A DNA stretch of 64,000 nucleotides from NCBI RefSeq assembly GCF_037042905.1, contig NC_087245.1:14634001-14698000 (forward strand), read 5' to 3'. Shown here in pieces: positions 8,044 through 62,624 of this stretch (position 1 is its first letter; every line of letters begins with the position of its first letter). The DNA comes from Lytechinus pictus. Lineage: Eukaryota. The notes beneath the pieces were generated by a model. That model did no database searches. It saw only the letters and a list, made by a program, of their open reading frames with translations, and was not told where the DNA came from. Made by a program: the position numbers and the translations under genes.

Positions 8044-10902
8044 CTACGTGATTCGTTATTTGTGTATATTCATCAAACACGTTCCTGTAAGGTTTGGAAA
8101 CTTTGGACGATCAAACATCCCGTAATGTTTGCAAGAATCAAACATTTTCCTGTAATATATTTGCACTCTCAAACATTTACCTATTGCTGCGTAGACTATA
8201 TGTATCTCATGTTTAGGGACATAATAATTATCTAATTTTGCAAAGTCTACATATTATATTTGTAATTCAGTTGAAGATGTGAACAGCGACAGATCCAGGA
8301 TTTCATGAACGAGAGTGGGGGAGGGGGGCTTCGAGGAGACGTAACAAAACTTAATCGGTATATAGATTGATTATTAAAGTTTGTGTTTATCCATCCAGTT
8401 AACCTGGATACCTCCAATAATACTTACCAAGAAAACAAAGTTTAGAACTATGGGTCTAAACGCCACCCATCCCCATCGATACCCACACCCCCCCCCCCTT
8501 GACTGGGAGCTCTGCTCTAATCCTCGACGTCTCGCCCAATCGCAGTAATGAAATATTCGATTTCGACGTTGATGAGAAGAAAAGCTTTCGTTTTAAAATG
8601 CCGTGGCAGCCAATTTACCCTGTCAATATGCTTTTACATCGAAATGGCGCGAAAGGTTGACGGTTGAATTGCTTGAACAGACAATCGGCTGCTTGTTATA
8701 ACGTTATAATTGAAAGTTTCCAGTGACATGTCACGTAGCAATTGGTAAAAAATTCAACAAGTTGGATAGGGTTAATTTGCAACAAACTTCGAAGACATAG
8801 CCTGCGCTATTGCTCAATACTTAAATTAAAGGAACATCTCCTTATTTTTTAGTCATAAAATTGCCATTGAGATTTGGTACTAAAATGGCGATTCTCAGCT
8901 GGAAATTAAGATGTCGATAGATAATTCCTCATTGTGATATTCTTCTTACCCTTCTTTTCTTTTCTCAGTGCGGGGGATGGAAAATATGAGAATAAAATAA
9001 CAAGAGTCCATTTCCCAACGATATGGGGTAGAATCGTTAACAATATTATTTCTTCTCTTCAAGTGTTTTCTTCGATTAAATTGCTAGGGGTAGACCGGCA
9101 TCTCTGCGGGATTCGGGTTTGAAAGGGTGACTCTCAACATAAGATGTCTCCAAAACACTTCTCATTGCAATACATTTCCAATCTTCCTCCTTTTAAAAAG
9201 TAAGGTTAGGAAAAAGATGATGATAAATTGGACAATGATATTGGTTTGAAAGAATGTAGCTCTACTCTGACACATGTGAATAAAGGAAATGTTTGTGCCA
9301 AACCCAACTATTCTTGATGAAGTGTTTGGAATGTTTCTTTATGTGAATCTTACGTTAGACCCAATGGAACAGTCAACATTGTCGAGTGTCTCACGTTCTC
9401 GTCATGTTTAGGCAACGGTTTAAATTGTTGCTTTAGCGAGTCTTTAATCCATGTAAGAGTGGGTAATCCTGTAGATTCATGTAAAGAAAGGATTGGGGCA
9501 GGTTTTTCATATGTTTACATAATAAACATGGACCGAATTATGGTTCCCGTCGAAAGTTTACTTTCTGTTACTTTTCTAAATTTTAATCAGACCTGTATGT
9601 TGATTCTTTTCGACGTTTCCAGTTCTAATGTAAAAGAGTAATTTCCATCACCAGAACAATGACCTCCTTAAACACCGTTTGTAGCCCCCAAATTATTGAG
9701 TTCTGTTTAAAAAGATTGGCATTCATGTATACATTGGAGGAAGACAAATAATATATATTTAAGAGCTCTCCGAGTGTAAGAATGCAATCAAAACACATTT
9801 TATGACACTTGTTATTTTGATCTCATTTCAGATATGGTGTTCTCAAGGGTGTTGTCGATGACCACTTTTAGAAGAGACTGATCTATTTTTGAAGGCATGC
9901 TTGTTACCCTTCTTCGAGCTCAGGAACACACTACAAATAGTGGTTGAAATTAATGAAATGAATGAAATTAATTTCTATCGGAATGCTGATAACATCCGGA
10001 GCTGCATCTCGACGTCACGCAATTCAGAGACCCTGAACAACTTGGAAGGTCTCACTGCAAATACGCGGAAATCTATCTAGCCTCGCTGCGGACTTTACAC
10101 GGATCATTCGTTCATGGTTAGCATACATAGTGGTAGCATGCCTTCGATTGTTCCTGATGATCATTAATCAAACCGATTCACCTGAGATCAACAACAACTA
10201 TAACATTGGAATCTCTCCAAGTGTCTAGCAGATAGTTGCGAGGATGCGGTATAAGGAGATAGGACGACTTAACATGACGAGTTCATCTGAGCCTCCTAAT
10301 AAGTGCAGCGACTGTAGTGAGGTGTGATTATCTTGTAGGGATTTCCAGAAAAATTTGTCGCCGACTGCCTTCTGGGGAATTACATATTTGTAAGGATTAT
10401 GTTATTTGGTCTTAATACCTGTATTAACAGGAGCTCTGAGTCATTGAAAATTATGTTTTTACATCGAAACAACCGAAGTGTGACAAGCTGCGTTTGGGAC
10501 ACACATCTGCAAGGAACCAATACAATTTGGATGTCATAAATTTTTCAATTAACTCAGCATTTCTATCACCTCAAGAGTGGTACTTAGGTAATCATAAACT
10601 GGAACCTTCTTCTCGTTAACCTTTTGTTGGAACCTTAAAAAGAAATACGGATCCCAACTATGCCGACTGTCACTTTCATGTAAGGTGCCGAAAACAGCGA
10701 ATAGCACAACTACAGCCTTCTTATTTTTCGAAATACAAAGTAATTTGGCCATCGTCTTGAAGGCGCTCTGCGACTTCATTCTACCCTTTGGATTTATAAG
10801 TGGTATCCCATCAAACCTTACTGATGATTGTGAAACAGAACGCACAAGATCGTTATTCTTGACTTGAAATCGTCTTCCATTCGGGCCAGCAAATTTTCCA
10901 CC

Positions 10903-11277
10903 ATGAGTGCTCCACAGATCCTAATCAACGGGTCCCTAGCCCAGCCCGAGACCATGCACCCGAAACTCTTAATAACCCGGGACCTCGGCACGATCGAAGA
11001 GGACGAGGAGGTCGCTGGCCTGAGCGAACTCAAGAAGATGACGACGCGATTACGTCTGTCGACCAGGAGACCGTCGATTATGCAATGGAGGGAGAATCTA
11101 TCGAACTTTCAACAGAACATGGCCTTGGTTAGGCACTCTGGACTTGATAGCGATGAAAGCGATGAGGGATGCGACGACGACGTCGATGGGAAATCGGACG
11201 ACAGTGAGATTCTGACAGACGATCAGGAGAGGAGAAAAAAGGTCGATGATGCCATTGCCTGGATAAGGCAGGAATTG
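10903..11277 (+). CDS. FAM167A: FAM167-family protein, coding exon 1 (125 codons)
   Basis: ATG in CCACCATG context; LKKMTTRLRLSTRRPSIMQW and DDAIAWIRQEL motifs resemble FAM167A/B; ends at TTG|GTGAGT donor, phase 0. Confidence 0.88.
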
Positions 11278-13026
11278 GTGAGTATATTTTCTGACCATGC
11301 TGTTGTCACAGTCACACAAACGAAATCGCCACCAATCCGACCGATGTCATGTCAGTGAAAATAACGTAATAGTTTTGATCGATCTGGAGTCGGTTTCGTT
11401 GATGTGACGGCGACATGATGGTGGTGGAAGTAGGATGACGTTATATTGCCTAAATACGAACAACATATTCAGTACTGTTAAAATTTAGAGATTGAGAAGT
11501 GGAATATGCAAGTATTCGAAGCTAAGTACAATATTAAAGGTTTTAAAGGTTCCAAAATCTCAATGAAAATCGCATTCTTCTACAAAGTTTTTTCCCGTCA
11601 TCTTAGACTTTTGAATGGTTGAATTTTCGGATGGTCCGATGGGGAGGTAAAACCATCGGGTAGACAATCTTGCATTAAGACGTTCAGAGTATCTCTCTAT
11701 CAATAAAGGTATATGTACAACTTTTTTTTCGATGACTATTGGTTAATGAAATGACTCGTAGTTTAGTGTGTTAGTCTGTGAAATATTTAGAAAAATAATG
11801 ATAGAAATCACTGATGGCATTTAGATTTGTCACAACTCACAAGGTATATCTTTACCACCCAACGTAATATTAATAAATGCACGGAACAAGGAATCTTGTA
11901 TGATTGTTGCTTCCTTATCTTCGTTTCTTAATCTAATTCTCTAAACATTCTCTAAAACTACAACAAATATTGTCGTCTTTCCTCTCTGAGGAGTAAAAGA
12001 AATGCATTTCTACATTCAGATGTTTGATTGATTTCCGTCTTGATGACCAAAAAAAAAACCACCGAAGCTTAAAAATGGCTATTAATACCGCACCATACCT
12101 TTACTGCAACTCACTCTCACTCTCGCAATCCTCGGAGCAGATTTCACGACACGACTCCTAAATAATAAAAAGTCATCAGTGCGATGCCGAGATATTTCGA
12201 GCTGATGAGCAAAATTGAGAAAACACCCGCCTCATTTTCTCTTCAAAGACACCATACATCATCACGGTGTCTGCATCATTATGTTGACACGTTACGGCTA
12301 ATTGATTCCTGGCGAAATAAAAATCACTCACCGGTCGTCTGTCTTCCTCGTGCATGGTCGTTTAATGTCAGGAGGAAAATGGAAGATGAGCCGGAAGATA
12401 GGGAATTGGAAGGAGTCTGTGTACATGCTGTAGGCATGGTAGGGGAGGGTGTCTTCGAATATTATTTTCCCTTTTTAACGATATATCTTTGTAAATTCGT
12501 AGAAAAATCAATTCACTTTAATCGATTCATGATTAATCAATCAATTTCAGTTTCTCGATCTAGTGTTTAATCACATGGGATGTTTGTTTTGCTCGCATAA
12601 TGAATCACATAATTATACATTTAAATAATCATAAATAGGCTATAAAAGCGCATTTTTGAGAAAACTATATGATTAAACATGAAAAAATACACTTTATTAT
12701 AGCCGCATGACTATATTGCTAATATCCTCTTTTACATCACAATGCATCGAATTTGATGTAACTCACCCTTCCCTGGCTGAGCGGGCTGGTTGAACGCCCT
12801 GCTCTTTTCTACTTTGTATTAATCTACTTATATATATACACAATTTCTGCTAAGTGTAGCCTTTATGCGTATAGCTCTTTTACTCCATTTAAATAAAAAG
12901 AAACTATCATGACCATGCAAGTTATCATTCATTCTTCATTGCATATGGCATCGGAGTCTTTTTGAACTTGTAAACCACCTTAAGGAATTTTAAGGGAACG
13001 ACTGACAGGCAGGGCACGAGATGTTT

Positions 13027-16391: not shown

Positions 16392-18958
16392 TAAGTATTA
16401 GTTATAGCGCTTTGTAATGAATCAATATTTTTTATTGATAAAGTTAAAAGCTCAAATGTGCACTGTTAAATTTCCTTCCCATAATAGTTGAAGACATTTG
16501 TCCCGAATTATGTTTCACAAAGCCCATGCATACATAATGTTTCTTTATTTATTCTATACTATAAACTGAATTCGAAAGTCCCATGCACGCGAGTTATACG
16601 CGTTGATCTCAACGAAAAGTGAAAGAGGAGCTAAGATTCTATACTACGCTAAACAATCCAATGTGCGTTCTACCCACTGGGAAACGGAATATGAACCCCC
16701 CGTGTAGGGGGGCAAGGCAGGTCAAATGGGAGGGGTCCCGGGGGTCAAATACATTTTGGGTGCATTTTCACTATCTACCGTTGGGCTGTTGTTTTTTAGC
16801 ATGAATGTGAGACGTGTTGAATGACACGTATTGCGGAACTTATTGTACAGTTTTAAAGGGCTCCTACCAGAATCTGAGGCAGTTTTGTTTTCTAGTTGTA
16901 CAGAGCTGTGTGTAATTGGTGATTTATTACTTAACATTGGGGTTCCTATGGAGTTGGGGAATGGCGACCCCTTAAAAATTTATCTTTTAGATAAGTGATT
17001 AGGCCTATATCTTATTTTCTAACACCATAACTGCCATGGGAATTCTGGTCAATTTGACTGATTTGGGCCTGCATGCAGAGGACACAGTATTCATAATTAT
17101 ATTTTTTCTCTCTTGCTCTGCTCGCTCACAAATTATCAGAAATACTGTCCTAACTCCATCCCGATCTTCAGAAACTTTGCTTCATCACATCAATCATCTG
17201 CATATGTTATACTTTTTAAGATTTTATTTGGTATTTTTTTTTTTTTTTTTGCTGTTATATTTTGTTATTTGCATACATCTTTTTTACCTGAACGCAAGCT
17301 CTTTGAATTCAACGCAAGATTTTTGTGCACAAATGCCATTAAAAGCGAATCAATGTTTGTGGTCTTTATACTGCAGGTGCATCATTGAAGCAAAATAGAA
17401 TAATCCTTCTGAATATTTTGATTAGGTCTGCAAGCTCACACACCCACATCTATGCTTGTATGATCATTATTTCGCTTTGATCAAGAATATTGCCATTTTA
17501 TTCTTTGTCACTCCGATTGTGAATGCTATGCAGTTTTGACGTCTTCTTTCTTCTTTGATATATTAATTTGTGAACAATATTTTCTGCAGTTTTGGGTGAC
17601 GATGGTTCTACTTCATTTAATTGTTAAAATGGGGCTGTCAACCAATGAAAGTGGTGTCCTGCTATGCATGCGCTTGTTTTATAGTTTTGATATATACACA
17701 CACCCTCTCAAATATGATAACCAATCAATCGTGATTATTTTTTGGTTTAAACAAAAAATATGTTTATTTAATCTTTATCGAAAACGATGAATTATTAGTT
17801 ATGAAGCAAATTATTTCGTTTCTTAAAGAATGGTGGGAAGAAAATCCTTTGTTATCATTATCGTAGAACTAGATGGTAAAGATATTGCATTGTATATATA
17901 TTATTAACCCGAGTTATAGGTTTTTAGCTGATTATTCGGTACCTTGACTGTATAGTCCTTTATTTACTGTGATTTGCATTTTCAACTAGTATTCTTTTCA
18001 CAAACCCTAACCCCAAAAATCATGCCAGTATACGTCTACATGATTTCAAATATTGATTAGGATGTGTTAAAATGGACTATTCAAATACATATCACAGTGT
18101 ATAGAACTAAAATTGACGCTTACGCTTTTGTCTTTTAGTTCATCTGGTACTCACGTCATAACGAATTACGTATGTGCAACCTACATTATTTACAAGAGAT
18201 ACACCCGTCCTCGCACGATGCTAAGAAATCCAGGTTTTACAACAAAATAAACAATATCTGACAAGCTTGATCTGAAAAATAATCTTCTATCAGTCACGGA
18301 TTATTATTCTCATTTCTTTGCCAAACAAACACAGTTCATAGGGTTAAACCGCTTAGGGGCTAAGACTAACAATGCTCAAAATACATTCATCATTTTGGTA
18401 TCGTTAAGTCAACATACATACCAGACTTCTAGGGATTGCCAACATTTATGTTTTGTAAGAAATCATGATTACTATGAATGCCTAAAGAATGTTTAAGAAT
18501 TTTTTCTAAAAGTAGGCCGGATAAAATGGGTGAACTGTATAGTGATGTTGATACCCCCCCCCCCCCCCCATAAGAAGAAGACGGGGCCATACCGAAGCGA
18601 GGATTTTTCCGGGGATTTCAACAGTTTGAAAAAAAGTTGACCTTGTCCTTCTTTGAGAGAGCGAAGCGCCTAACTAGTCTCTCTCTAAAAAAAAAATCGA
18701 ATGAATAATTCACTCATCGGAGAAATGAATGGAATCCACTCGATTGATAAGAGTGACTTTCACTTGTTGCCAAAATGAGAGTTGTGTGAACTGAGAAATG
18801 TTCGTTGTTGTAATTATGTTCACTCTAAATTTACTCAAATTTTAGTGATAATTGATGTCACTACCCTCGGTATAGCCTAAAGCTGCGCGCAAAAATTATC
18901 AATATATCGTTTAATTACTGTTGTCAATGTTGTTTCTTTTTTTTTCTTCAAATCTCAG

Positions 18959-19237
18959 ATGGCAATGAAGTCCCAAGATCACCAACTCGCCATGCAACTC
19001 ATGAAGCTCCGCGGAGAGATCCAGGCGCTCAAACTCGAGAAAACCAATGACGAGCACCGAGAATTAATAGAGGGCGCCCGCTACAGCATAGTGGAGGAGA
19101 GTGCCGAGCTAAAGAGTGCGCTATTTGATTTGCCAATGAACAATAACTTCTATCCAATCGCGGCTGGGGAGGATCCATTGAAAGGCATGGGGGTGACGAG
19201 GATGAATTTGAACAGTCGGAGATTCTCGTTACGATAG
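18959..19237 (+). CDS. FAM167A: FAM167-family protein, coding exon 2 (C-terminal conserved domain)
   Basis: Polypyrimidine tract + CAG acceptor at 18956-18958, phase 0; MKSQDHQLAMQLMKLRGEIQALKLE...PLKGMGVTRMNLNSRRFSLR* matches the FAM167 C-terminal signature. Confidence 0.9.
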   Translation: MAMKSQDHQLAMQLMKLRGEIQALKLEKTNDEHRELIEGARYSIVEESAELKSALFDLPMNNNFYPIAAGEDPLKGMGVTRMNLNSRRFSLR

Positions 19238-42320: not shown

Positions 42321-42454
42321 GAGTGTATACTCGGTTCCCTTTTAATTGTTCTTTCTAATTGATTGATTAATTTTAGTATGTGGAAACAAATATTATTACT
42401 CGGAATATGCTGTATATTTCAATTCAAATACTGAATTAATTTTTACATTTTCAG

Positions 42455-42829
42455 CAAGTGAATATGAGTCAGAGCAACATGGGGATTCGTGCTATTTCTT
42501 TAGGTCACTTGAAAGGTCCTTTCATGATGCGGAAACAGAATGTTCCAACTATGACTTTCATCTGGTCTACATACAGAGTGAGGACGAACAGAATTACATT
42601 GAGCGCCTAATGAATGACCACGATGCCCTGTACTGCTGGATCGGGCTAACCCTCGACGATAATGGAACAGCGGTTTGGATGGATGGGTCCAGTCTCACCT
42701 ACCAAAACACAGATCACAACAGCCACGATCAAGGACTGGAATGTCTCCGCATAAGCAAATATGAAGAGTATACATGGCAGGACACTGATTGTTCTATAAG
42801 ATATCAATATACTTGCGAAAAAGAAATTG
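42455..42829 (+). CDS. C-type lectin domain exon
   Basis: TTTTCAG acceptor, G|GTAATT donor (phase 1-1); SCYFF...FHDAETEC...HLVYIQSEDEQNYI...WIGL...WMDGS...EC...WQDTDC...YTCEK. Confidence 0.92.
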
Positions 42830-43261
42830 GTAATTTTCTTTCAGTAGCTCATAATACATTAATTTTTATGAATAATTTTGTTTTTCAAAAATATTTATGC
42901 GGGTAGATGTTCCATGTATTAGTTTGGAAAAATCATTTGGTGATGTTAGTGGCCCGGTTAGTGCATGATAACCAATACTGTTATGCCTCACGGCCAAAAC
43001 CAGCAACCTACAATAGGCTCAATGGTCATTTTCGGTGTCAAAGCATTCAATGCCATATGACAGAAGATTAGGAACCGATTTTCAGATTTGGTCATTCTAG
43101 CGGATTGTTAGATTCAGTAATGTCTGTCAACCAATCATGTCATTTCGGATTTATGAAAATGCCGACAAATTATACTTTGAAAAGTGCAATTAAGAAAGCT
43201 TTTATGTTAATGATTATGCATTCACAAGTCACGTAAATCACTTTGTTTAAATACGGATATA

Positions 43262-45759: not shown

Positions 45760-48258
45760 TGTTATATATCACTTTATTTGCAAATCTGCACATTAAAGGA
45801 ATACAATATACGCCCAGGACATTTCTCTATAATGAGAAAATGCAGGGCAATAAAATTCACTATACAGAAAAAAAAACTTAGAATATAATACAACAATCAA
45901 TATGGAGAAAAATACTGGGAAGTGCAACGAGGTTAGCATTTCTCTATAATGAGAAAATGCAGGGTAATAAAATTCAATATACAGAAAAAAAACTTAGAAT
46001 ATAATACAACAATCGATATGGAGAAAAGTACTGGGAAGTGCAACGAGGTTAGCCAAGGGAAGGAAAATGGAGTCCGTCTATGTACTTGAAACACGGAGAG
46101 GGAGTTTGTTTTCCCACATATTCAGTTTTTTTGAGTAATAAATGACAAAAGATGACACGATGGCCAATTTTGATATATTCTTTCGGAATTGTTTGAGATG
46201 GACGGGACTCCCAGTTTCCTTCAGCAGCCGCTTTAGCCTCGTTGCATTGTCCGGTGAGATGTGGCCTCGAGAGCCGATTTCCAAAGGAAGGAATAACACT
46301 GAATATCGATTGTTTTCTATATCTGTGACTAGGGGGGCGTACTTGTTTGATTTGAACTCATGTGCATTGGATATATTCATTTCAAAAGGGACTGATAATT
46401 CGAGTATGAGAAGTTTCTTTGTGTTCCTCCAAAAAATGCAGATATCTGGTATGAGATTTGTTTGAGTGCATTCTAGTGGTATGGTATATATTCCTTCCTT
46501 TGTCCATCGCCCTTCCTTAAGATCTGTGTACATAATAATTTCCACGAATGACTTTATGCCTTCTTGAATAGATTCGGCCAAATACAATAAGATGTTGTCA
46601 TGACGCCAAGTGTAGCGCCCTTCGTCAAGTAATATAGGGCATGCATTTAGCACATGATGTACTGTTTCTCTATTTTGACATCTATTATAATTTGCTGAAG
46701 ACATTTCCCCCCAGCGAGATAGATTTGCATTTGTATTGAGTGTATCCGAAAGGGAATTCATGAGAAACTTAGCAACTTAATTGGTAGATTATAAATCAAA
46801 CTTTTCCAATCCGCAGATTTTGATTCCATGCTTGCCAATTCAAAAAACTTGCCTTGTACTGAAAGTGATTGGACATGAAGAAGCCAATCTTGTGATCTTT
46901 TTTTGTAGTTGAGAATCTTTAACCTGCTTTTTCAATTTTGGGAGTGTGACATTCGTATCTGGAAGCGATTTAAAGACATTATTACTGTTCACAACTGTTG
47001 ACTTTTTTCTTGTCCACTGAGATTCTCTTTCAAGGGCAACATCTAAGCAATGGTTAACTTTAGCATCCCACGTTGCTCTTATTCTAGTATAATTCTGAGT
47101 TTGAGCTTCGTAATAGAGATCTGAAATGTTGGGTATATTTAGACATTCTGACATATGAAGGAAAGCCAAAGTGGCTGGTCTCGCAAGGCCAGACCACTTT
47201 TTTAGATATCGATTACACAATGCATCTAGTGACTTTAAGTGGGTTTCGGTAAGTTCATTGACTGTAAGGTGGAATCTCAGTGATGGCAGAAAATAGTCAG
47301 CAAATACCTTCAGCTTGTATTCATCACGAATTAAAGCCTTTTCAATGTTTTGGATACCTCTTTCAATAATTGATTTTACATATTGAAATATATCATCTGA
47401 TGAGTTGTCATATGTCACAAACGAGCCTAGGAATTTAAACTCTTCCGTTTTCAGGGTTTCGAGCTCAATATTATCCAATTGAAATTTCAAATCAGTTGGG
47501 GAACCTCCTGATATTGAAAGGGTTCTACATTTTTTCTGTTTTAATTTCAACCCGAGTGACAAAATACGAGAAGAGATTGTAATCATGAGCCGTTGATGGG
47601 TTTTTTTATTTCCTGTTATTAAACAAAAGTCATCTGCAAATGGTGCAGTGATGAACTTTTGACCATCTACTCATATCCGAATCGGCTATTCTCTGAGAGA
47701 GTTTCAATTAATGGATTAAAACAAAGGAGAAAATTATTGGTGATAAAGGATCTCCCTGAAATATACCATTTCTAAAATGAAACTGCTGGGAATTCCAATC
47801 CTTGGTTGAAACAAAGCCGTCAAGGGAAGAGTACAGATTCGTGACATAGTCAGTGATAGGTTTAGGAATCTTATTACGATCAAGACTAAATTTGATAAGG
47901 TCATGTGGTACTGAACCAAAAGCATCTTCCAGATCAAACCAAGTGAAATGTGCAGTTTTACGGGATTTTTTTGTATGTTTGATAATTTCATGTACCACTG
48001 TATTGTGATCAAGACAGCCAGATATACCATGCAAAAATCCCTTCTGAATAGTACGGTCTATATATTCATTCTCTGTTACAAAACATTCAATTCTATAGCA
48101 AGTATTTGATGAAATATTTTGCCAGTCGTGTTTGATAGTGCTATCATTCTAAAATTCTCTGGGAGATTTGTATCGCCCCTCTTATGTATCAATGATACTC
48201 TACTACGAGACCAAGATTGTGGGGGGACTGGGTTTCTTAGTATTTTACTATAGAGGGT
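45760..48258 (-). mobile_element. 5'-truncated, frameshifted RLE-type non-LTR retrotransposon (HERO-like)
   Basis: RT motifs ENFRMIAL, WFDLEDAFGSVPH, GIFQGDPLSP, FADD; degenerate CCHC knuckle ETVHHVLNAC; RYTWRHDNIL; PD...ELSVPFE...K..KY; LEIGSRG; AATAAA near the 3' end. Confidence 0.9.
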
Positions 48259-48328
48259 AGTAGTAGTAGTAGTAGTAGTAGTAATAGTAATAGTAAAAGT
48301 AGTAGAAGAAGTAGTAGTAGTAGTAGTA

Positions 48329-48400
<72 letters not shown>

Positions 48401-48424
48401 ATAGTAGTAGTAGTAGTAGTAGTA
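48258..48424. repeat. (TAG)n microsatellite
   Basis: Read directly; abuts the retrotransposon 5' truncation point. Confidence 0.95.
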
Positions 48425-48772
48425 GAGTGGGTTAATTCTGGGACAGGTGCAACTGCCCCACGGAAATAAAAGGACGGGTATAAGCCTTCCCCTTTCTTTT
48501 ATTTCCGTGGACCGCCCGGGCGCGCCCCTGTGAATTTTCAAAACATTACATCCAATTATCCTCTCGCCAACCTATGTATTAGTTTATGACTATAAATTAC
48601 TTTAAATTCTGGAACTTAGCATAGGTCCTATAGTTTGAAAATATGTTGGTGATAATGACAAAAAGGGGGATGATATCGACGATGGTAAAACTTATGATAC
48701 CTAACTTATGTCAGAATAATACGAGATGACCCATGAATCGAATTGTTTTAGTTATCACAATGTCGTTTTCAG

Positions 48773-53239: not shown

Positions 53240-55350
53240 ATGATTTTTGTTTTGACGATTAACGAAAACACAAGTCTCAAAAGTATAGAATGTTTTAGAG
53301 AATGTTTAGCACAAGCCGACTGGTCCCAGGTGTACATAAATTTCGACCCTAATGAGGCATATAATATTTTTGTTAACAGGTTTCTAATTTGTATAATGCC
53401 AATATTCCATTAAAGTCTTCATCCCGGAACTACAAAAAAAACTCCGAGATCTCACTGGATCAATGTCTCTTCTTCGTTGTATTAATCGGAAAAATCGTCT
53501 CTTTTATAAGCACAAAAAATTAAATCAGATCAAAGTAAACGTCGATACTCTTTATATCGTAATACCCTTACTACTTTACTTCGGACCGCTAAAAAGAATT
53601 ATTTATCTAGACAATTTGAAGAAAACAAATATGATGTCTCAAGTACGTGGATGATGATAAACAATGTTCTAAATAAAAAAACAAAATCACCATCTATTTC
53701 TACAATTATGATAAACAGCTCCGAAAAAAGAAATCCAATGTTGATTGCTGAAACATTTAATGATTATTTCATAAATATTGGCCCAAATCTTGCCCGCGAC
53801 ATTCCATATTCTGATGTTGATTTTTTTTTTACTCCCATTACTTCTCGTGAAATTATGATCATTGTTAAAGATTTGAAAACTAAAAAAAGCTCTGGCTATT
53901 ATAATATTACGAATTTTCTTTTGAAGAAGACTGTAAATGAAATAGTACAACCGCTAACTTATTTATTCAACTTATCTTGAACAACTGGGGTAGTACCAGA
54001 AAAATGAAAATATCAAGGTCATACCGATACATAGAAAAAGGAAATAAACATGATATTGGAAATTATCGTCCCATTTCGCTCTTAAGCTCTTTTTCCAAAA
54101 TTCTTGAAAAACTAATATACTCCCGCACTGTTAATTTTCTAAATAAATATAATATTTTATCGAAGGTTCAATTTGGTTTTATAAAGAAACATTCAACTAC
54201 CCATGCATTACTAATGTTTATAGATAAAAAAGCTACATCAATAGACGCTTTTTCTCATACTGTTGGTTTATTTCTGGACTTCTCCAAGGCCTTCGATATA
54301 CAATTAATCATAACATTCTTATTTTCAAATTATCACATTATGGAATACGTGGAAAGGCCTTGGAGTGGTTCAGAAGTTATCTATCTAACCGTCAGCAGTT
54401 TGTATGTATTAACAATCAAGAATATCATAAAAAAAAATTATTACATGCGGAGTGCCCCATGGGTCTTTATTAGGCCCTTTATCATTTCTCATTTACATTA
54501 ATGACTTTCAAAATTGTTCTAATATTCTTTCATTCCTTCTGTTTGAAGATGACTCTAATATATTTATCTCTCACAAATATCCCCAAACTCTCTTACATAC
54601 ACTAAATCATGAACTGATTTTTGTTCTTAATTGGATACATTCCAATAAATTGTCTCTTAATATCAATAAATCAAATTATATCTTATTCAGTAATAAGATC
54701 GCTAATTTACCCGGACCTGTATTTTTAAACAACACACCTCTTGTAAAGGTTGACACGACAAAATTTCTTGGAGTATATATCGACAGTAAATCAACTTGGA
54801 AAGCCCACATTAATCACATTAGTAAAATCATATCCAGAAATACTGGTCTCATCTGCAAACTTAAGTCATCTTTTCCCACCCGTGTCTTGTTATGTTTATA
54901 CTCCACTCTAATGCCGTATTTAAATTACGATATCCTTTCTTGGGGGAACAGTTCAAAACTTCATATCAATAAAATTTTACTTATCCACAAAAGACTAATA
55001 AGAATTATTAATAATACAAGTTACCGGGCTCATTCTATGCCACTCTTTTATTCATGTAATGTTCTACAAATCCATGATCTTTATGCATTTATTTAACCTT
55101 GGAATATTTATGTTTCAACTCTCAAGAAAAGAATTACCCACTACCGTATCTTCTCTATTTAGAAGGAATGACGAGATTCACAGCTATCCTACTCTTCCAC
55201 GTATACTCGTACAGCTTTTTCACATAAAACAATTATTGTCACAGGTCCATTATTTTGGAATGATCTACTAACCTACTTTAAAGATTGCGATTTTATATAT
55301 ACTTTTAAACGTCAATTGAAAACTGACATTTTAAACAAATATCTGAATGA
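53240..55350 (+). pseudogene. Decayed CR1/L2-group LINE ORF2 (reverse transcriptase), 5'-truncated
   Basis: GNYRPISLLSSFSKILEKLI, FLDFSKAFD, GSLLGPLSFLIYIND, LFEDD (mutated FADD), KFLGVYID; several frameshifts; probable 3' UTR to AATAAA/A-run near 55826-55852. Confidence 0.92.
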
Positions 55351-57769
55351 CAATTCATCGGCTCCCTGGTGTTCCTCTTAACTATTGTCAGTCCACCTCC
55401 CATTGTTTTTGGTTTTTTCCTTCTTTCTCTCGTTTTTTTAAGGAAATATTTTTTTCTCTTTCTCTTTCTTTTCTTGTAACAGTTTAATATTAAAACAAGT
55501 TGACAATTACTTGTGATTTCAATAGTTTGCCATTCATATCCTCATCTTATTGATATATCTGTCTCCAATCTGAACGTTCAATTGTATAATATTTGTCTTA
55601 TTTATTATGAATAATTGTGATGTAATAATTTTTTTTTTACCTTGATTTACCTTGATGTTGGGCATAAAGTATAGAAGACTTATTTGCCCCTCTGCATCTT
55701 CTTAGAACTTGTCCTCAGTAATAAACCTAACAATTTCACATGCATGTATTGTATTTTTTTATTATCAATGATTTACTGTCTTTCGATGGACGTTACATTG
55801 TATTTGATATTTTATGAGATATGAAAATAAACTTACCCTAACCAAAAAAAATAATGAAATAACCCAAGGAGCAATTTGTGGACTTCGCCCTCTGCTTTTT
55901 ATCACGACGACACTGCGCATGAGCAAATTTCATTAATTTTCGCTGCACTACGTGTACATACCGTATTTACCGAACCGCCTGAACGCAACGCTGAAGTACT
56001 ACGATCATGACGGAAAAATAAAAACTTTACACCAGCGAAAATTCATACCCAACAGTTTCTCAGCTAACGGCGAATAATATTTTTTGAGGAATAGGACATG
56101 TTTCATCGTATATTTGGTATTAAGGTAGGTATCAAATATTTGAAATATTAGTATATGGTATAGATAGTGTCTATAAAGTAATCTGTTTGAGAAACATGTT
56201 ATGAAATCAATAAGAACGTAATTTTTACAGTAAGTTTACTAATCGATTTCAGAAATGGGATGCAGCGCAGTCCGTAGACCAAAAGCTTCAGTCTCTGTAT
56301 TTTGGTTGTTCCGCTGAACTGCGTTGGCTCCACTCACCATACATAGACTGAAGAGGAGGGGGGCTGTGGAGCCGTGATATGTGCAAACGCCGGGATATGT
56401 GCAAACAACGGTATATGTGCAACATTTCGCCGGGATTTGTGCAAACAACGGAATTTGTGCAAACGCCACGCCGGGAAATGTGCAAATCTGTCAAAATATA
56501 TCAACGGCATCTGTTCAAACGTGACGACGTGATATGTGCAAATGAACAATTTTCACGGGAAAAGTGCAAACCTCCGGGATATGTGCAAATTACTGTTTTT
56601 ATCCATATTAAGGATATTTCTCATGAAATGTTTCATAACATTACTGTTAAAATGAGAAACATGCCTGCATAAGGAAGAAGCTACAGCTAGTTTCATCGGC
56701 AATGAAACGCTTTTCAGAGAGGCAGTGGGGGGGGGGGTACCAGGCTTAGTGGACATTTGCTCTGGCGACGATGGAAATTCTAAACATTAAGCGAAACATA
56801 AAAGCTAACCTCCAAAACTAAATACACCCTAATCGTAATCATGACAATATTCTGAACCATAAACTCTATCACAATCCTAACACTAATCCTATGCCTTCTG
56901 AGATATTAATTGTCGCAATTTTCGCGGGAGTATATGTCGTGTCACCTTAAAGGGAGATTTAGTACTGTTTCGAACACTGCATGGGGCAATTATTAAAGCG
57001 GGTGGGAGAGGCAAGCATGATTTCCACTGATACACACATTGAACTTGATCTGTTGATTTCATTTCCAGATTTCATCAGAAGTTGTCGAATTTCTTTAAAA
57101 TTTAATTATAAACCCAAAATGTCTTGATTACTATGCCATTTGATATTATTTTTTTATGAATCTATGAACATTCAAACAAGACATTGTTTCCAATCTCTTT
57201 TAACACACCCAAAGTGACGCCAGCTTGTGTAATATCAGCCACATGTGTAAAAACACTGTACCCACTAACGTATATACAAATATTTCCCACACAATCATGT
57301 CATACTAGCGCACTTTACCAACAAGAGGCATTAATTTTGAACTATATACCCACAAATGCAATGCACTTTACTCTCTAAATAAAATATTTTTAGGTTGCAA
57401 TTCATACACCTCGATTTTACAACGAATGTTCCATATGATATGAATGCAGGGGCTGCGATCCGGGGGGGGGGGGGGGGCAGGGGGTTCACAGTGCCCCCAA
57501 TTTTTGAAGCACTAAACAGTTTTCCCTTTTAACCCAAGAACTTTGCCCCTTTCATCTTAGAAGAACCTGTTTTATGTGTTAAAGTGTGCCCCTTTACCTT
57601 TTTATAAATATAAGTGCCCATTCTCGTATCAGATAAGTTTCCATTCCTTAAAACCGCTCTTTTCATGCCCTGTCATTGCCCGTTTTCCTTATTTCGCGTT
57701 CTTATCCCTTCTAAAAGTGCATATTTAAATAATAAAAATCCTTTTAAAATGTTCCTCTCGCCCCTTTAA

Positions 57770-58553
57770 CCCTATCTAGACCGGGGGGGGGGGGGCGTCG
57801 GAGGCCCCCCTCCCCCCTCAACGAGTCGCGCGATATTTTCGTCGCGCAATTTTTTTTGACCGCGCTGCTCGCGGACTTTTTACTTTCAAGTCTTCCGCAC
57901 CTTTTGAGACCAATTTTGCGTCACCCGGGTACGCGGTTCCGAAGTTATGCAATGTTACGTAAGTGCATGTCAGACCAAAAATTGCTCAAAAACGTGATTT
58001 CGTGTACAAAGTCAATGTAAATTGTGTTTTCAACCAAAAATCATAAATGTATGATTATTTTTAGTTTTGCACGCCTAAATGTATGTATTTTATGCTGTTT
58101 ATGATCTTAGAAGAGTCCCCAACGAATTTCATTGAAAAAAACAATGAAAAAACAAAAGGTCCAAAAAACAAAGAAATACATACAAGAAATTGCAAAAAAA
58201 CAATATCATACATAAGAAATTGATCTGATATCACAATTTTTTCATGTACACTTGCTAAGAACATCACAAAGGGTTTCAATGCCAAATATTAGAACATTTG
58301 GAGCTTTATTTACGGAGTTAGAGGAAAAAGTATGATTTTGCATACTAATTACGCATAAATAAGCATAATTACGTAATAACGATTTGCATGAAATAAATTA
58401 CTATACAATTTTGTAGATTATATCCCAGACAACATGCGTGCCAATTTTCGGTGCGATCGCGCGGTCGACGGCCGAGATCTCAAGGGGGGGGGGCCTGGGA
58501 GGCCCCCCTCCCCCGGCCATATGAATTCCAAAAATACCCCGACCTAGATAGGG
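57770..58553. mobile_element. piggyBac-like MITE nested in the 4.6-kb element
   Basis: TTAA|CCCTATCTAG...CTAGATAGGG|TTAA. Confidence 0.85.
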
Positions 58554-59124
58554 TTAAGTTGCCCCTTTTCAGAGTGAAATTCTTCTTCTGTAGTGTGTAC
58601 ATTTTCATCTTTGATCAAGTGCCCCATATGAATATTCTGATAAATGCCCCTTCTCTTCTGGTTTGTTCAAATGTCCAATTTGCTAATATAAGGTATATGT
58701 ATTTGCAATTAGCGTCCTTTCTTTTATGCAGGGGCATCTGAGCAGAGGGAGAGGGGGGGGGGCACTTGCCCCCTTAAGAAATGTACCTCGTTCCATGGAC
58801 CCCAAAAGTTTTCAATACCAATAAAAAGAAAAGAAGAAAAGGAAAGAAAAGTGGTGAAATATGATAGTGTTCTCTATGTCAAAATATATATCAATTTTTT
58901 TTTTTTTCATTAAAAGTTTCAAAATTTTGCTCGCTCGCTCGCAGCTTTAAAGAAGTTTTGCCCCACACGCCATTTTTGCCCCACTCAATCATTTTGCTTA
59001 TTACCCTACTAGGGTACATTATGCTATTTTGTTTTTAAAAAAGTTTTTTGTTTCAAAAGAGGAAGTGCCCTTTTTCGCTGTGCCCTCCCCTCCCCTATCA
59101 ATTTTGCTCTGCCGACCCATGCTG

Positions 59125-60580
59125 GTAGTCTCCTTTTCCAGACCCAATGCGACTTTACCCTACAAGATGAAGGTTATTAGTCTACTTTTTAATACTCAAT
59201 CTTGGCCATATATTCTTCCAAACAACAGGAATAACGCTATACCTAGACTAGCTAAGCCTAGTCTTTACTCAAAACCCGGTGGTTAAAAAGAGAAATAAAC
59301 TTTACAATTTAAACCTCACCATCTTCTAAACCATTGCTATGTCATCAAGCATATGGATATAGAGTTATTATTTTCTCCAGACCCAGTCATTTGAAGAAAA
59401 AAATCAAGAATCTTCGAAACTTCAATCCCGTCATCTTCAATACTAAGAACCTGTAATGTAGCACATGGGTATACAGCGTAATTATACAGTGTACAGTGTA
59501 GTTTTTTTAATAAATGGATATGGAGTAAAGGCTATGCTATAGGTACCCGTGCTTTGTTACATGTATACTTATAGACTATTAGTTTGGAAGATGATGGGGT
59601 CTTACTATTTAAGTTTTTTTTAATCACCAGGTTTGGAGTAAAGACTATACTCTATATCCATTTTTGCCCACAGATATGAGACGGTGGGGTCGTCAAATTG
59701 AAGATCTGCTAATTTTTTTAATAACAGCGTCTGGGGTAAAGACTGTGCTCTTATATCCATGCTTTCTTACAGGGTCTTATTTTTGAAGATTATAACATAA
59801 TTTTTTTTAACGGGTCTGGAGTAAAGACTACGATATGTACCCTTGCTTTATAACGGAGTCTTAGTCTTGGGTCTTAATTTTGAAGGTTTTTTAATCAAGG
59901 GTCTGGAGAAAAGACAACGCTTTATATCCATCTTTTTCACAGGAATGAGACTGTGGGGTCTTGAAAATTTGTTTAAATAAACGGGTCTGGAGAATTGAGA
60001 ATACGTTATATACACGTTCTTTATAACAGAGTCTTAGTAGTGAAAGATGGCGGGGCTTAAATAGTTTTGAATTTGTTTAATCACCCGGTCTGGAGCAAAA
60101 ACTAGACTTTAAACCCAGTACTAGTAACCACCGATATCTCAGTTGGTAGAGCGGAGGACTGTAGATGATTGATGATTAACCTTATGTCGCTGGTTCGAAT
60201 CCGGCTCGGTGGATGTGGGTTTTTTTTGGCGCAAATATTCACTACTGAATGACACGCGCCGTATAAGCTAAAACAACAACAACAACAACTTATTCGATAG
60301 GAATTAGACGGTGAGGTATTAAATTTGATTTTTTTTTTTATTGATACAACAAGGTCTAGGGTAAAGATTACATTCTATATTCATTTCTACAAGGTCTTAA
60401 TTTGGTAGATGGTGAGGTGTTGCATTTTTTTTAATTATTTTTGAATGGCTATGCTCCTTATGTATGCTTTAGTACAGGATCTTAGTTCAGAAGGATCTTC
60501 AAATGATTAAATGACCGGGTCTGGAGCATTAAAAGACTACACTCTACATCCATGTTATTCCAAAAGATAGTGGGTCTTCA
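59125..60580. repeat. Degenerate ~70-100-bp repeat array with orientation switch near 59490
   Basis: GGGTCTGGAGTAAAGACT...TATATCCAT motif recurs on + from 59515 to 60560 and on - from 59125 to 59480. Confidence 0.7.
60128..60213 (+). tRNA. tRNA-Tyr(GTA) with 13-nt intron (60165-60177), probably a pseudogene
   Basis: Acceptor CCACCGA/TCGGTGG + A73; CTCAGTTGGTAGAGCGGAGGACTGTAG; GCTGGTTCGAATCCGGC; T8 terminator at 60220; mismatches at pairs 10:25 and 31:39. Confidence 0.85.
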
Positions 60581-62624
60581 ATTTAAGGTTGGTGCCCCCC
60601 CCCCCCCCCCCTCCCCGCCACCTCTCTGAAAAGCGTTTCATTGCCGATGTCATTGTAGCTTCTCCCTTATGCAGACATGTTTCTCATTTTTAACAGTAAT
60701 TTTATGACTGAAACATTTCATGAGAAATAGCCTTTATATGGATAAATGCAGTGATTTGCACATATCCCGGAGGTTTGCACTTTTCCCGTGAAAATTGTTC
60801 ATTTGCACATATCCCGTCGTCACGTTTGCACAGATGCCGTTGATAAATTTTGACAGATTTGCACATTTCCCGGCGTGGCGTTTGCACAAATTCCGTTGTT
60901 TGTACAAATCCCGGCGAAATTTTGCACATATACCGTTGTTTGCACATATCCCGGCGTTTGCACATATCACGGCTCCACAGGGGCCCCTACCTACATATGC
61001 AAGGGTGTACGAAAAATGTTTGAGGGTGTGAAGTGTGGGGGTTTGTGGAGGGAAGGGGGGGGGGGGGGCAAGGAGGGGGCAGGTGCAACGCATATACTTT
61101 TATAAGTTTTTTCTCTGATATTTGTTTGTTAAACTCATCTGGTAGTGGTACGATGCAGTCTTAGAATATTATTTCATGATGTGCATAATGTATACTAGTT
61201 TAAGAAATTTATTTGAATTATTATTTACAATTGTTACTTTGTTAACTGCATTGTATGAAATTTGATTTGAGAGAAAAACAATAAAACATCTTTAAAAAAA
61301 AGTATATTGCCATGTAGGTGTGCTGATTGCTGGTGGTAATTTTATTTGATTCATTAATTCATTTTAGTAATTATGTCTGACTACTGGTGTTGTAATTGTG
61401 ACCGTAATTTGACTAATCATCCTAATAAAAGAAGAACTTTGAATGCAAAAATGGATCACCGTGATTACACCACTGCTGACGCTGTCGAATCATTAGGAAT
61501 TAAAGTGACACCCGATCAAAAATAAAAAAAATTCATTTGCGACAGATGCAAAATAATTTTGAAATTATCTGAAAGTAATTCAAATGTAATTGAAAATAAA
61601 TCCAAATTAAAGAAAATTAGTAGAATCAATGTTTACTTGGGGAGGAAGGTGAAGGTGACCAGCTATGCTTCGCCATTTCTTCGAAAGAAACGAAGACGAC
61701 TGACAAGCCCACAAGCACAGACACCCCTTCAAAAAAAGATGTGACGACACAAACACAGCCAGAAAAACGGCGGGTAAGTTTCTCTTTAAATCACACATTT
61801 CGAGACTTGATTGTCCATAGACACATTAAACTACATTTTACCGAGCCCAAAATGAAGAGATAAGACAATAATCTGTCAAATGATAAAAATAGAAAATCAA
61901 ATTAACCACAAGAAAAAAAAATCAACTTGACCAGTTGGACCAGTAACTCTGGAAATTGGAGTATTGGTTTATCGGTCTGGTAATACTGTTCTAGTTACAA
62001 ATAATACTGCTCCAGTCATTGGTATTGAATAGGCCTATAGTAACTGGGATTTTAAACTGGTCTTAATTATACTGGAGTCTGTTACTGATGTTTTGGCTTA
62101 GTGGTTGGTATCCAACTGAGTGAACTCAATTGGTCTTACTGGTAGTCCCTATTGGTCTTATCGGCTGTTCATTTGGTCTTCCTGGCGTAACAGGCGCCGG
62201 GGGGGGGGGGGGGAGCTGCCCCGGCACTGGCGGATTTCACCGAGAAAAGGGCGAAAAGAGAAAAAGGTAAAATGAAGAAAAGAAAACGAGGAAAGAGGCC
62301 GGGGTGGGAGGAATGGGAAAGGTGAAAAAGCAAAGGAAAATGACAACAATAAAGAAAGAAAGAATTAGAACATGCGAGAAAGTATAGGCCTTAACATGTC
62401 TTTAGCAGGAGACTCAGTGGCATATGGACAAGAATGGTGGACAATGAGAGAAATCGACAAAAAGAGATACGAAATGAAGGTATATAGAGACAAAGGTTGA
62501 ATTTGAAAATCAGAATATGAAGAAAAGGAACAAGAAAAAAGTCAATAACACGACAAAGCTGCCGCGGATTGAAAAAAACGAAGGGAAAGAAAGTGTATGA
62601 AAGTGAGGTAAAACACGTGCTCAA

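Follow-up and report, generated by a model that had tools for sequence, protein, structure and literature searches.

A tRNA-Tyr-derived unit carried as cargo by a multicopy family of non-autonomous DNA transposons in Lytechinus pictus

DNA transposons bounded by terminal inverted repeats (TIRs) can hold host DNA, for which transduplication offers one comparison system (PMC3538342). In the multicopy Pack-TIRs, exemplified by Ssk-FB4 of Drosophila and by Pack-hAT-N8_XT, host DNA has been amplified within a TIR element and its copies lie far from the parent locus, each in a distinct target-site duplication (PMC8277862). Here, we describe an element that resembles them, at positions 56365–60979 of a 64,000-nucleotide stretch of the Lytechinus pictus genome (C1:14,634,001–14,698,000; hereafter the window). 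It encloses a gene derived from a transfer RNA (tRNA) for tyrosine and was compared with the searched genome of 811.7 Mb in 368 contigs. Junction microhomology is shared with the Pack-TIRs, as are repetitive TIRs with FB4. The cargo sets our element apart, being a gene unit of RNA polymerase III (Pol III) with transcript-like bounds, whereas the term 'tRNA' does not occur in the main text of that survey, and there are about 40 copies here against the few multicopy cases described in it (PMC8277862).

In the literature, tRNA-like loci multiplied by transposable elements are short interspersed nuclear elements (SINEs; PMC8044555; PMC3538342). As with the tRNA-headed SINEs, a mobile element here multiplies tRNA-like sequences that decay to pseudogenes and confuse annotation; however, SINEs are described as moving by way of RNA with a 5′ tRNA part (PMC8044555), whereas our tRNA, with its intron and terminator, is internal to an element that moves as DNA. 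Dada transposons, including Dada-tY, are likewise DNA transposons associated with tRNA-Tyr genes, but according to their description they insert into the tRNA gene with duplications of 6–7 bp (PMC8869645), while here the tRNA is inside the element. A review links tRNA counts to transposable elements, although its account of that link does not involve this mechanism (PMC13578239). Literature searches aimed at a TIR element with a tRNA gene yielded none, judged from their listings; Repbase and Dfam were outside their scope and may hold the family. The foldback elements (FB and Tetris of Drosophila and TU of sea urchins) likewise have long TIRs, made of subrepeats in the outer domain and unique sequence in the inner one, around a heterogeneous non-coding interior, and the TIRs of Tetris are reportedly modular. 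The duplications made by FB and TU measure 8–9 bp, unlike the 5 bp duplication and TGT ends seen here.

The copy in the window has the following parts.

56365–60979, no strand assigned: whole non-autonomous DNA transposon of the youngest subfamily, 4,615 bp, with end-to-end matches elsewhere in the genome
56360–56364, no strand assigned: left target-site duplication GGGGC, 5 bp, an exact match to the right flank
60980–60984, no strand assigned: right target-site duplication GGGGC, 5 bp, an exact match to the left flank
56365–56737, + strand: left TIR, 373 bp, from self-comparison, with an outer domain (56380–56589) of ten subrepeats
60606–60979, − strand: right TIR, 374 bp, from self-comparison
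57142–57358, no strand assigned: segment of 217 bp missing from the tRNA-less relative L038 (gap in blastn)
57770–58553, no strand assigned: nested miniature inverted-repeat transposable element (MITE), 784 bp, with CCC..GGG ends, between TTAA copies at 57766–57769 and 58554–58557; family-wide
59259–60559, both orientations: family-native degenerate repeat units, spaced by about 85–110 bp, one of which is interrupted by the tRNA piece
60123–60227, + strand: host-derived piece, comprising a leader of about 5 nt, an intron-bearing tRNA gene, a short trailer and a run of T, outside which identity to the host locus L034 falls to background
60128–60213, + strand: tRNA-Tyr(GTA)-derived gene (ARAGORN), differing from L034 at position 10 (private) and at 39 and 45 (family-wide)
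60165–60177, + strand: 13-nt intron, derived from a 16-nt form, with A instead of G at position −3
60220–60227, + strand: T8 run, Pol III terminator-like, read from the sequence
60228–60330, + strand: family-native segment 3′ of the T-run, also present in a tRNA-less sister family (L036, L037)

The two TIRs are 92% identical across 379 columns, and each has ten TGTGCAAA-type subrepeats at matching offsets (16–218) followed by the inner unique part; the subrepeats are putative transposase-binding sites. The termini are TGTGG...CCACA. Four stop-to-stop frames of at least 100 amino acids overlap the element (106–121 amino acids), the fourth in the right TIR, and the three that were scanned have no Pfam match at E ≤ 0.1; the element is without coding capacity. 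A first-pass annotation had reported modular TIRs of about 370 bp with TGT...ACA ends, an exact flanking GGGGC and no transposase, and had read the whole as a Pack-type DNA transposon with a captured tRNA unit; each of these statements is borne out by the comparisons given here. The left flank of the element is a G run. The tRNA-Tyr(GTA) is the sole tRNA called by ARAGORN in the window, and a six-base trailer separates it from the T8 run. By its end signature, the nested MITE is probably piggyBac-like.

The element is a young copy of a family of non-autonomous cut-and-paste DNA transposons. End-to-end matches in a single piece were obtained for 13 of 37 scored candidates, the window copy included. 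The five youngest copies (L001–L005, on four chromosomes) are 5–17 substitutions apart over about 4.6 kb, that in the window differing by 11–17 from its four sister copies on other chromosomes, and older subfamilies lie about 100 and about 190 substitutions away. There are 78 exact matches genome-wide to a 24-base end motif, plus 152 near ones, and none to its reversed control; the end variant of the sister family has 47 exact matches. Duplications were scored in 24 two-ended copies, 21 of the element family and three relatives. An exact 5 bp duplication flanks 21 of the 24, with 17 different sequences among them; two of the remainder have one mismatch and L033 is exact if a short duplicated end is allowed. 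The duplicated bases are 79% G+C (83/105), compared with 27–43% in the window, the middle base is C or G in every case, and purines predominate in the left part of the site, pyrimidines in the right. The family thus inserts into G/C-rich sites with a 5 bp stagger, and its successive subfamilies have carried the tRNA unit to about 40 places. The genome comparison proposed in the first-pass annotation gave what it looked for, namely shared cargo within distinct duplications.

The sister family without a tRNA (L036 and L037, with its 47 exact ends) has the same type of TIR and a 5 bp duplication, and its interiors are made of the same repeat units as those of the tRNA family. A palindromic insert of 620 bp is common to L037 and L038 (87%) and may reflect exchange between the families. 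The relative L038/L039 contains an insertion of some 9 kb (L038:4170–9921 and L039:1–3450) in which no long frame is present.

The origin of the cargo can be followed in the same genome. A 27-base tRNA motif, with up to three mismatches, matches 61 sites; 37 are inside element copies and 24 are, by coordinates, host genes, one of them on C7 (L034), a pair on C12 and the other 21 clustered in tandem on C17. L034, a free-standing tRNA-Tyr gene, is the only one of the 24 host rows to unite the T arm, intron ends and trailer of the element, and it differs from the family form at two of 73 mature positions (39 and 45). Compared with three older copies, L034 is identical at 4–5 of the five positions from −1 to −5, with background levels further upstream and past the T-run. 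The cargo junctions are identical in all aligned element copies. Moreover, A39 with T45 is present in all 29 scorable element copies (33 scored), against T39 with G45 in 18/18 host rows recovered and throughout a separate host alignment of 24 rows. The captured unit has a single origin. With TIR ends on both sides, an identifiable host parent and copies in distinct duplications, the family shows the marks of a multicopy Pack-TIR.

Upstream, the tRNA piece adjoins an internal repeat unit that continues uninterrupted in the relative L038; downstream, it adjoins the segment also found in the tRNA-less sister family. L038 has neither the tRNA piece nor the nested MITE, its repeat unit is intact and a single TTAA stands at the MITE site, so that L038 branched before the MITE insertion; it probably branched before the tRNA capture as well. 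If the polarity is as we infer, a stretch of about 105 bp from a single host tRNA-Tyr gene, to which L034 is closest, may have entered an internal repeat unit of an L038-like ancestor. The founder would already have had, or soon have gained, the changes at 39 and 45, and successive subfamilies would then have spread the unit, with the cargo along as a passenger. The host cluster at C17:10.399–10.420 Mb (L040–L042) consists of about 21 intron-bearing tRNA-Tyr genes in tandem at a spacing of about 175 bp, with a T-arm pair unlike the one in the genes on C7 and C12. A near-perfect palindrome of 528 bp (L034:1528–2055; 96%) precedes the donor-like tRNA gene by about 360 bp.

The cargo is damaged in ways that are shared and in ways that are private. 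A39 faces A31 and opens the anticodon stem (29/29 scorable copies, 0/18 host rows). The old subfamily retains the 16-nt intron length of the donor, with G at −3 in eight of nine copies, while the young subfamilies have a 13-nt intron with A at −3 (15/15 scorable, window copy included), compared with G in 17/17 host introns. Pairing of position 32 with intron position −3 is described as required for 3′ cleavage by the human enzyme (PMC8479045), and the same requirement may be expected in the host animal. Since A replaces G at −3, this anticodon–intron pair is lost in the young subfamilies. The window copy has in addition a private change at tRNA position 10 (60137), in both the A box and the D stem. 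The first-pass annotation called the unit a complete Pol III gene, and the gene, the 13-nt intron and the T8 run are indeed there; given the changes at 10, 39 and 45, 'complete' was an overstatement. Across 33 element copies the A box is intact in 28, the B box in 31 and the T-run, which L034 also has, in 29; all three are intact in 24. With promoter and terminator retained in this way, most copies may be transcribed. Singleton changes number 0.19 per column in the mature tRNA and 0.17 in the flanks, the anticodon is mutated in L007, L011 and L032, and the tRNA is partly or mostly deleted in L023, L031 and L033. Single copies decay at the rate of the flanking DNA.

Changes on the inner branches of the tree gave a different impression. 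The 1.3 kb at the right end was aligned for 31 copies and indels were masked; this set excludes two copies with large indels (L032, L052), two from which the tRNA is deleted (L031, L033) and seven loci that stop short of the region. Tip branches carry 18 changes in the mature tRNA and 162 in the flanks. On inner branches the 795 flank columns carry 74 changes and the 72 mature columns about one, where branch lengths lead one to expect 6.7 (Fisher p = 0.017, Poisson p = 0.01). Eleven flank windows of 72 columns have 3.0–19.9 inner changes each, and the mature tRNA is the lowest of the 12. A column tally of shared changes is weaker (p = 0.06–0.10); a first version of this tally (p = 0.005) was dropped, as its flanks had been inflated by unmasked indels and by inserts in L032 and L052. 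The TIRs as a control had inflated terminal lengths and gave no usable comparison. The signal is weak and suggests that transposing lineages conserve the tRNA body; because the test is post hoc and small, and its TIR control failed, we treat it as a lead only. If the conservation is real, the promoter is a likelier target than the product, since the stem mismatch is fixed and the intron pair is lost.

We consider a multicopy Pack-TIR with a passenger tRNA pseudogene to be the best reading, and a probable one. The element would be a non-autonomous TIR transposon moved by a transposase supplied in trans, although mobilization in trans can only be inferred, as no autonomous partner was found. That failure weighs against this reading, as does the polarity of the capture, which depends on a single relative, L038, that deletion between repeat units might also have produced. 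The inner-branch deficit in the mature tRNA, too, would not be expected of a pure passenger. An empty site did not come to light either; the 20 sequencing runs listed share 0.12–0.30 of the words sought, with no RNA run among them, and speak neither way on an empty site or on expression. The idea that a resident tRNA gene came to lie between two independent insertions draws on the G run at the left flank, by which the match of the duplications at this one site could be fortuitous. It can be dismissed, and chance repeats or duplications with it, because the 4.6 kb unit with its tRNA recurs end to end at numerous unlinked sites and is flanked at each by that site's own duplication. That the copies are working tRNA-Tyr genes which raise the host supply is very unlikely, even though ARAGORN calls a tRNA in 19 of 23 element segments (14 as Tyr), the family form and L034 have similar cloverleaf energies (−26.8 and −27.7) and the older 16-nt intron mostly retains its G at −3. 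The A31·A39 mismatch in all scorable copies, the loss of the anticodon–intron pair from the young subfamilies and decay at the neutral rate, anticodon mutations and deletions included, all stand against it, and host genes already number about 24. From the structure, a functional tRNA is an unlikely end product of element transcripts. The first-pass suggestion that the element may disperse a tRNA gene is accordingly right about the spread of the unit, with 37 of the 61 matches in element copies, and wrong if a working gene is meant.

The captured unit might instead have been kept as an aid to the element itself, with A and B boxes that, by recruiting TFIIIC and Pol III, maintain it in an open or insulated state; promoter-intact copies would then be the founders of subfamilies and the tRNA product would be irrelevant. 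A barrier role has been described for tRNA genes and TFIIIC. The inner-branch deficit with equal tip changes agrees with this proposal, and the changes fixed in the family or its subfamilies (positions 39, 45, 46 and the intron) are all outside the A and B boxes, both of which are intact in the four other youngest copies. We think it unlikely all the same: the test was picked after seeing the data, concerns about seven expected changes and reaches only p = 0.06–0.10 in the column tally, one flank window (19.9) inflates the expectation, and the sister family spread without a tRNA, to judge from its 47 exact ends. Slightly less likely again is the fuller version, in which an unspliced Pol III transcript was captured and then kept as a cis-acting aid, its A and B boxes bringing in TFIIIC and Pol III, shielding the element from silencing and favouring founders, while a TGT-ended, 5 bp, G/C-targeting transposase that fits neither described Ginger group moved it. 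On that version the family would have strewn Pol III promoters or insulators, as about 40 movable units, across the genome.

Returning to the Pack-TIR reading, we also considered the template of the capture. Leader, intron-bearing gene, trailer and T-run together make up the span of a primary Pol III transcript. The intron and terminator therefore do not separate a DNA template from an RNA template, and the first-pass argument that they favour a DNA-level copy fails, as an unspliced pre-tRNA would give the same boundaries. We lean slightly towards the pre-tRNA. Both boundaries of the host piece coincide with transcript ends, and the sister copy L036 has a SINE-like insert of 189 bp (L036:2691–2879; C3:73.343 Mb) that is absent from L037. 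This insert has no target duplication and lies just upstream of the family segment that follows the T-run in the tRNA family. Its head is like that of the signal recognition particle (SRP)/7SL RNA (Rfam E = 6.9e-5, 31.6 bits, below the gathering threshold of 70) and its tail is CA. Inserts of this type number 1,713 candidates genome-wide, and the 40 scored are mostly 99% identical, so that such retroposition does occur in the host genome. A DNA template, reached by template switching, is a serious possibility that we would place somewhat below an even chance. In its favour, the left junction has a microhomology of 1–3 nt, of the kind also described for Pack-TIRs (PMC8277862); the T-run is full-length, T7–T13 in the three older copies measured against T10 in L034; and the junction is not a clean insertion, L038 being also without some 60–100 bases 3′ of the T-run.

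The search for an integrase-coding partner, likewise proposed by the first-pass annotation, came back empty. No autonomous element with the same ends was found in four long copies read whole or nearly so and five that were sampled; end pairs outside this reading include those at C4:23.87 Mb, C13:24.92 Mb and C13:14.17 Mb. Among 932 candidates from a search with PF00665 (rve), the 150 scored were mostly long polyprotein frames and none, by eye, lay inside a listed end pair. When the end pattern was relaxed, 158 matches came up, with no new family among the 100 listed; a subrepeat pair with a different terminus gave three matches and no new end, and the end motif had no match in metagenome contigs. 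The long copies L031–L033 have reverse-transcriptase-like frames, recognized by eye as those of a long interspersed nuclear element (LINE); L038/L039 has no long frame. Mid-samples of five long sister-family pairs (L053–L057) included a LINE (L054) and two without an informative frame (L056, L057). In L053:2286–3434 (C3:66.739 Mb) there are broken frames with a match to DUF3504 (E = 7e-8), presumably Crypton-like. An intact frame of 861 amino acids at L055:845–3475 (with L058:1418 and L061:1072; C2:8.327–8.335 Mb) has no Pfam match over the cut-off and eight near-identical copies in several subfamilies. The frame is part of another element, nested in a sister-family copy, that has GGG..CCC ends and a 4 bp duplication, and its seven other copies do not lie next to listed ends, so it was rejected as the partner. 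The end signature alone would make that element Sola2-like.

As to superfamily, TGTNR termini are described for both Ginger1 and Ginger2/Tdd, and TGTGG stands at both ends of our element; the 5 bp duplication is as in Tdd-4/5, and the G/C-rich target as in Ginger1 (PMC2836005). The points of difference are that Ginger1 has 4 bp CCGG/CCGT duplications and animal Ginger2 4 bp duplications at AT-rich targets, and that the TIRs tabulated there measure 44–297 bp against 373 bp here (PMC2836005). Among our 24 two-ended copies the duplication is 5 bp in 21, and a 4 bp match is seen only in four homopolymer cases, which does not fit Ginger1. Within Ginger2/Tdd a 5 bp duplication fits only the Dictyostelium members (Tdd-4/5), and the duplications, 83/105 G+C, do not follow the AT-rich RTATAY target of that group. 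IS3EU/GingerRoot elements are described with 6 bp duplications and TA..TA, rarely TG..CA, ends; a 6 bp match was found in one of the 24, a homopolymer, and the family does not fit this group. Its ends point to movement in the manner of an integrase-type cut-and-paste element, and whether the family is Ginger-related is in our view evenly balanced. Of the first-pass comparison with Ginger the termini stand, the duplication length and target fit neither Ginger1 nor animal Ginger2, and, as the search for a transposase partner was negative, membership is unproven.

Gene capture by TIR transposons was already known, as was the inflation of tRNA counts by SINEs. In this genome the element-borne tRNA-Tyr copies outnumber the host genes (37 versus 24). 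About 60% of tRNA-Tyr(GTA)-like loci are thus element-borne and damaged, and most pass ARAGORN; gene-count and codon-usage work is therefore biased. The history is unusually legible, since a single genome holds the donor-like gene, the relative in a pre-capture-like state and the nested subfamilies. Two questions become testable: can TIR elements draw cargo from RNA templates, and does a DNA transposon gain from carrying a Pol III promoter?

Elsewhere in the window, 10834–11358 and 18881–19237 (+), as well as 42367–42906 (+), are likely host exons, presumably of a FAM167-like gene and of a C-type lectin domain. Broken frames of non-long-terminal-repeat retrotransposons, of two different kinds, are at 46078–48498 (−) and 53510–55096 (+).

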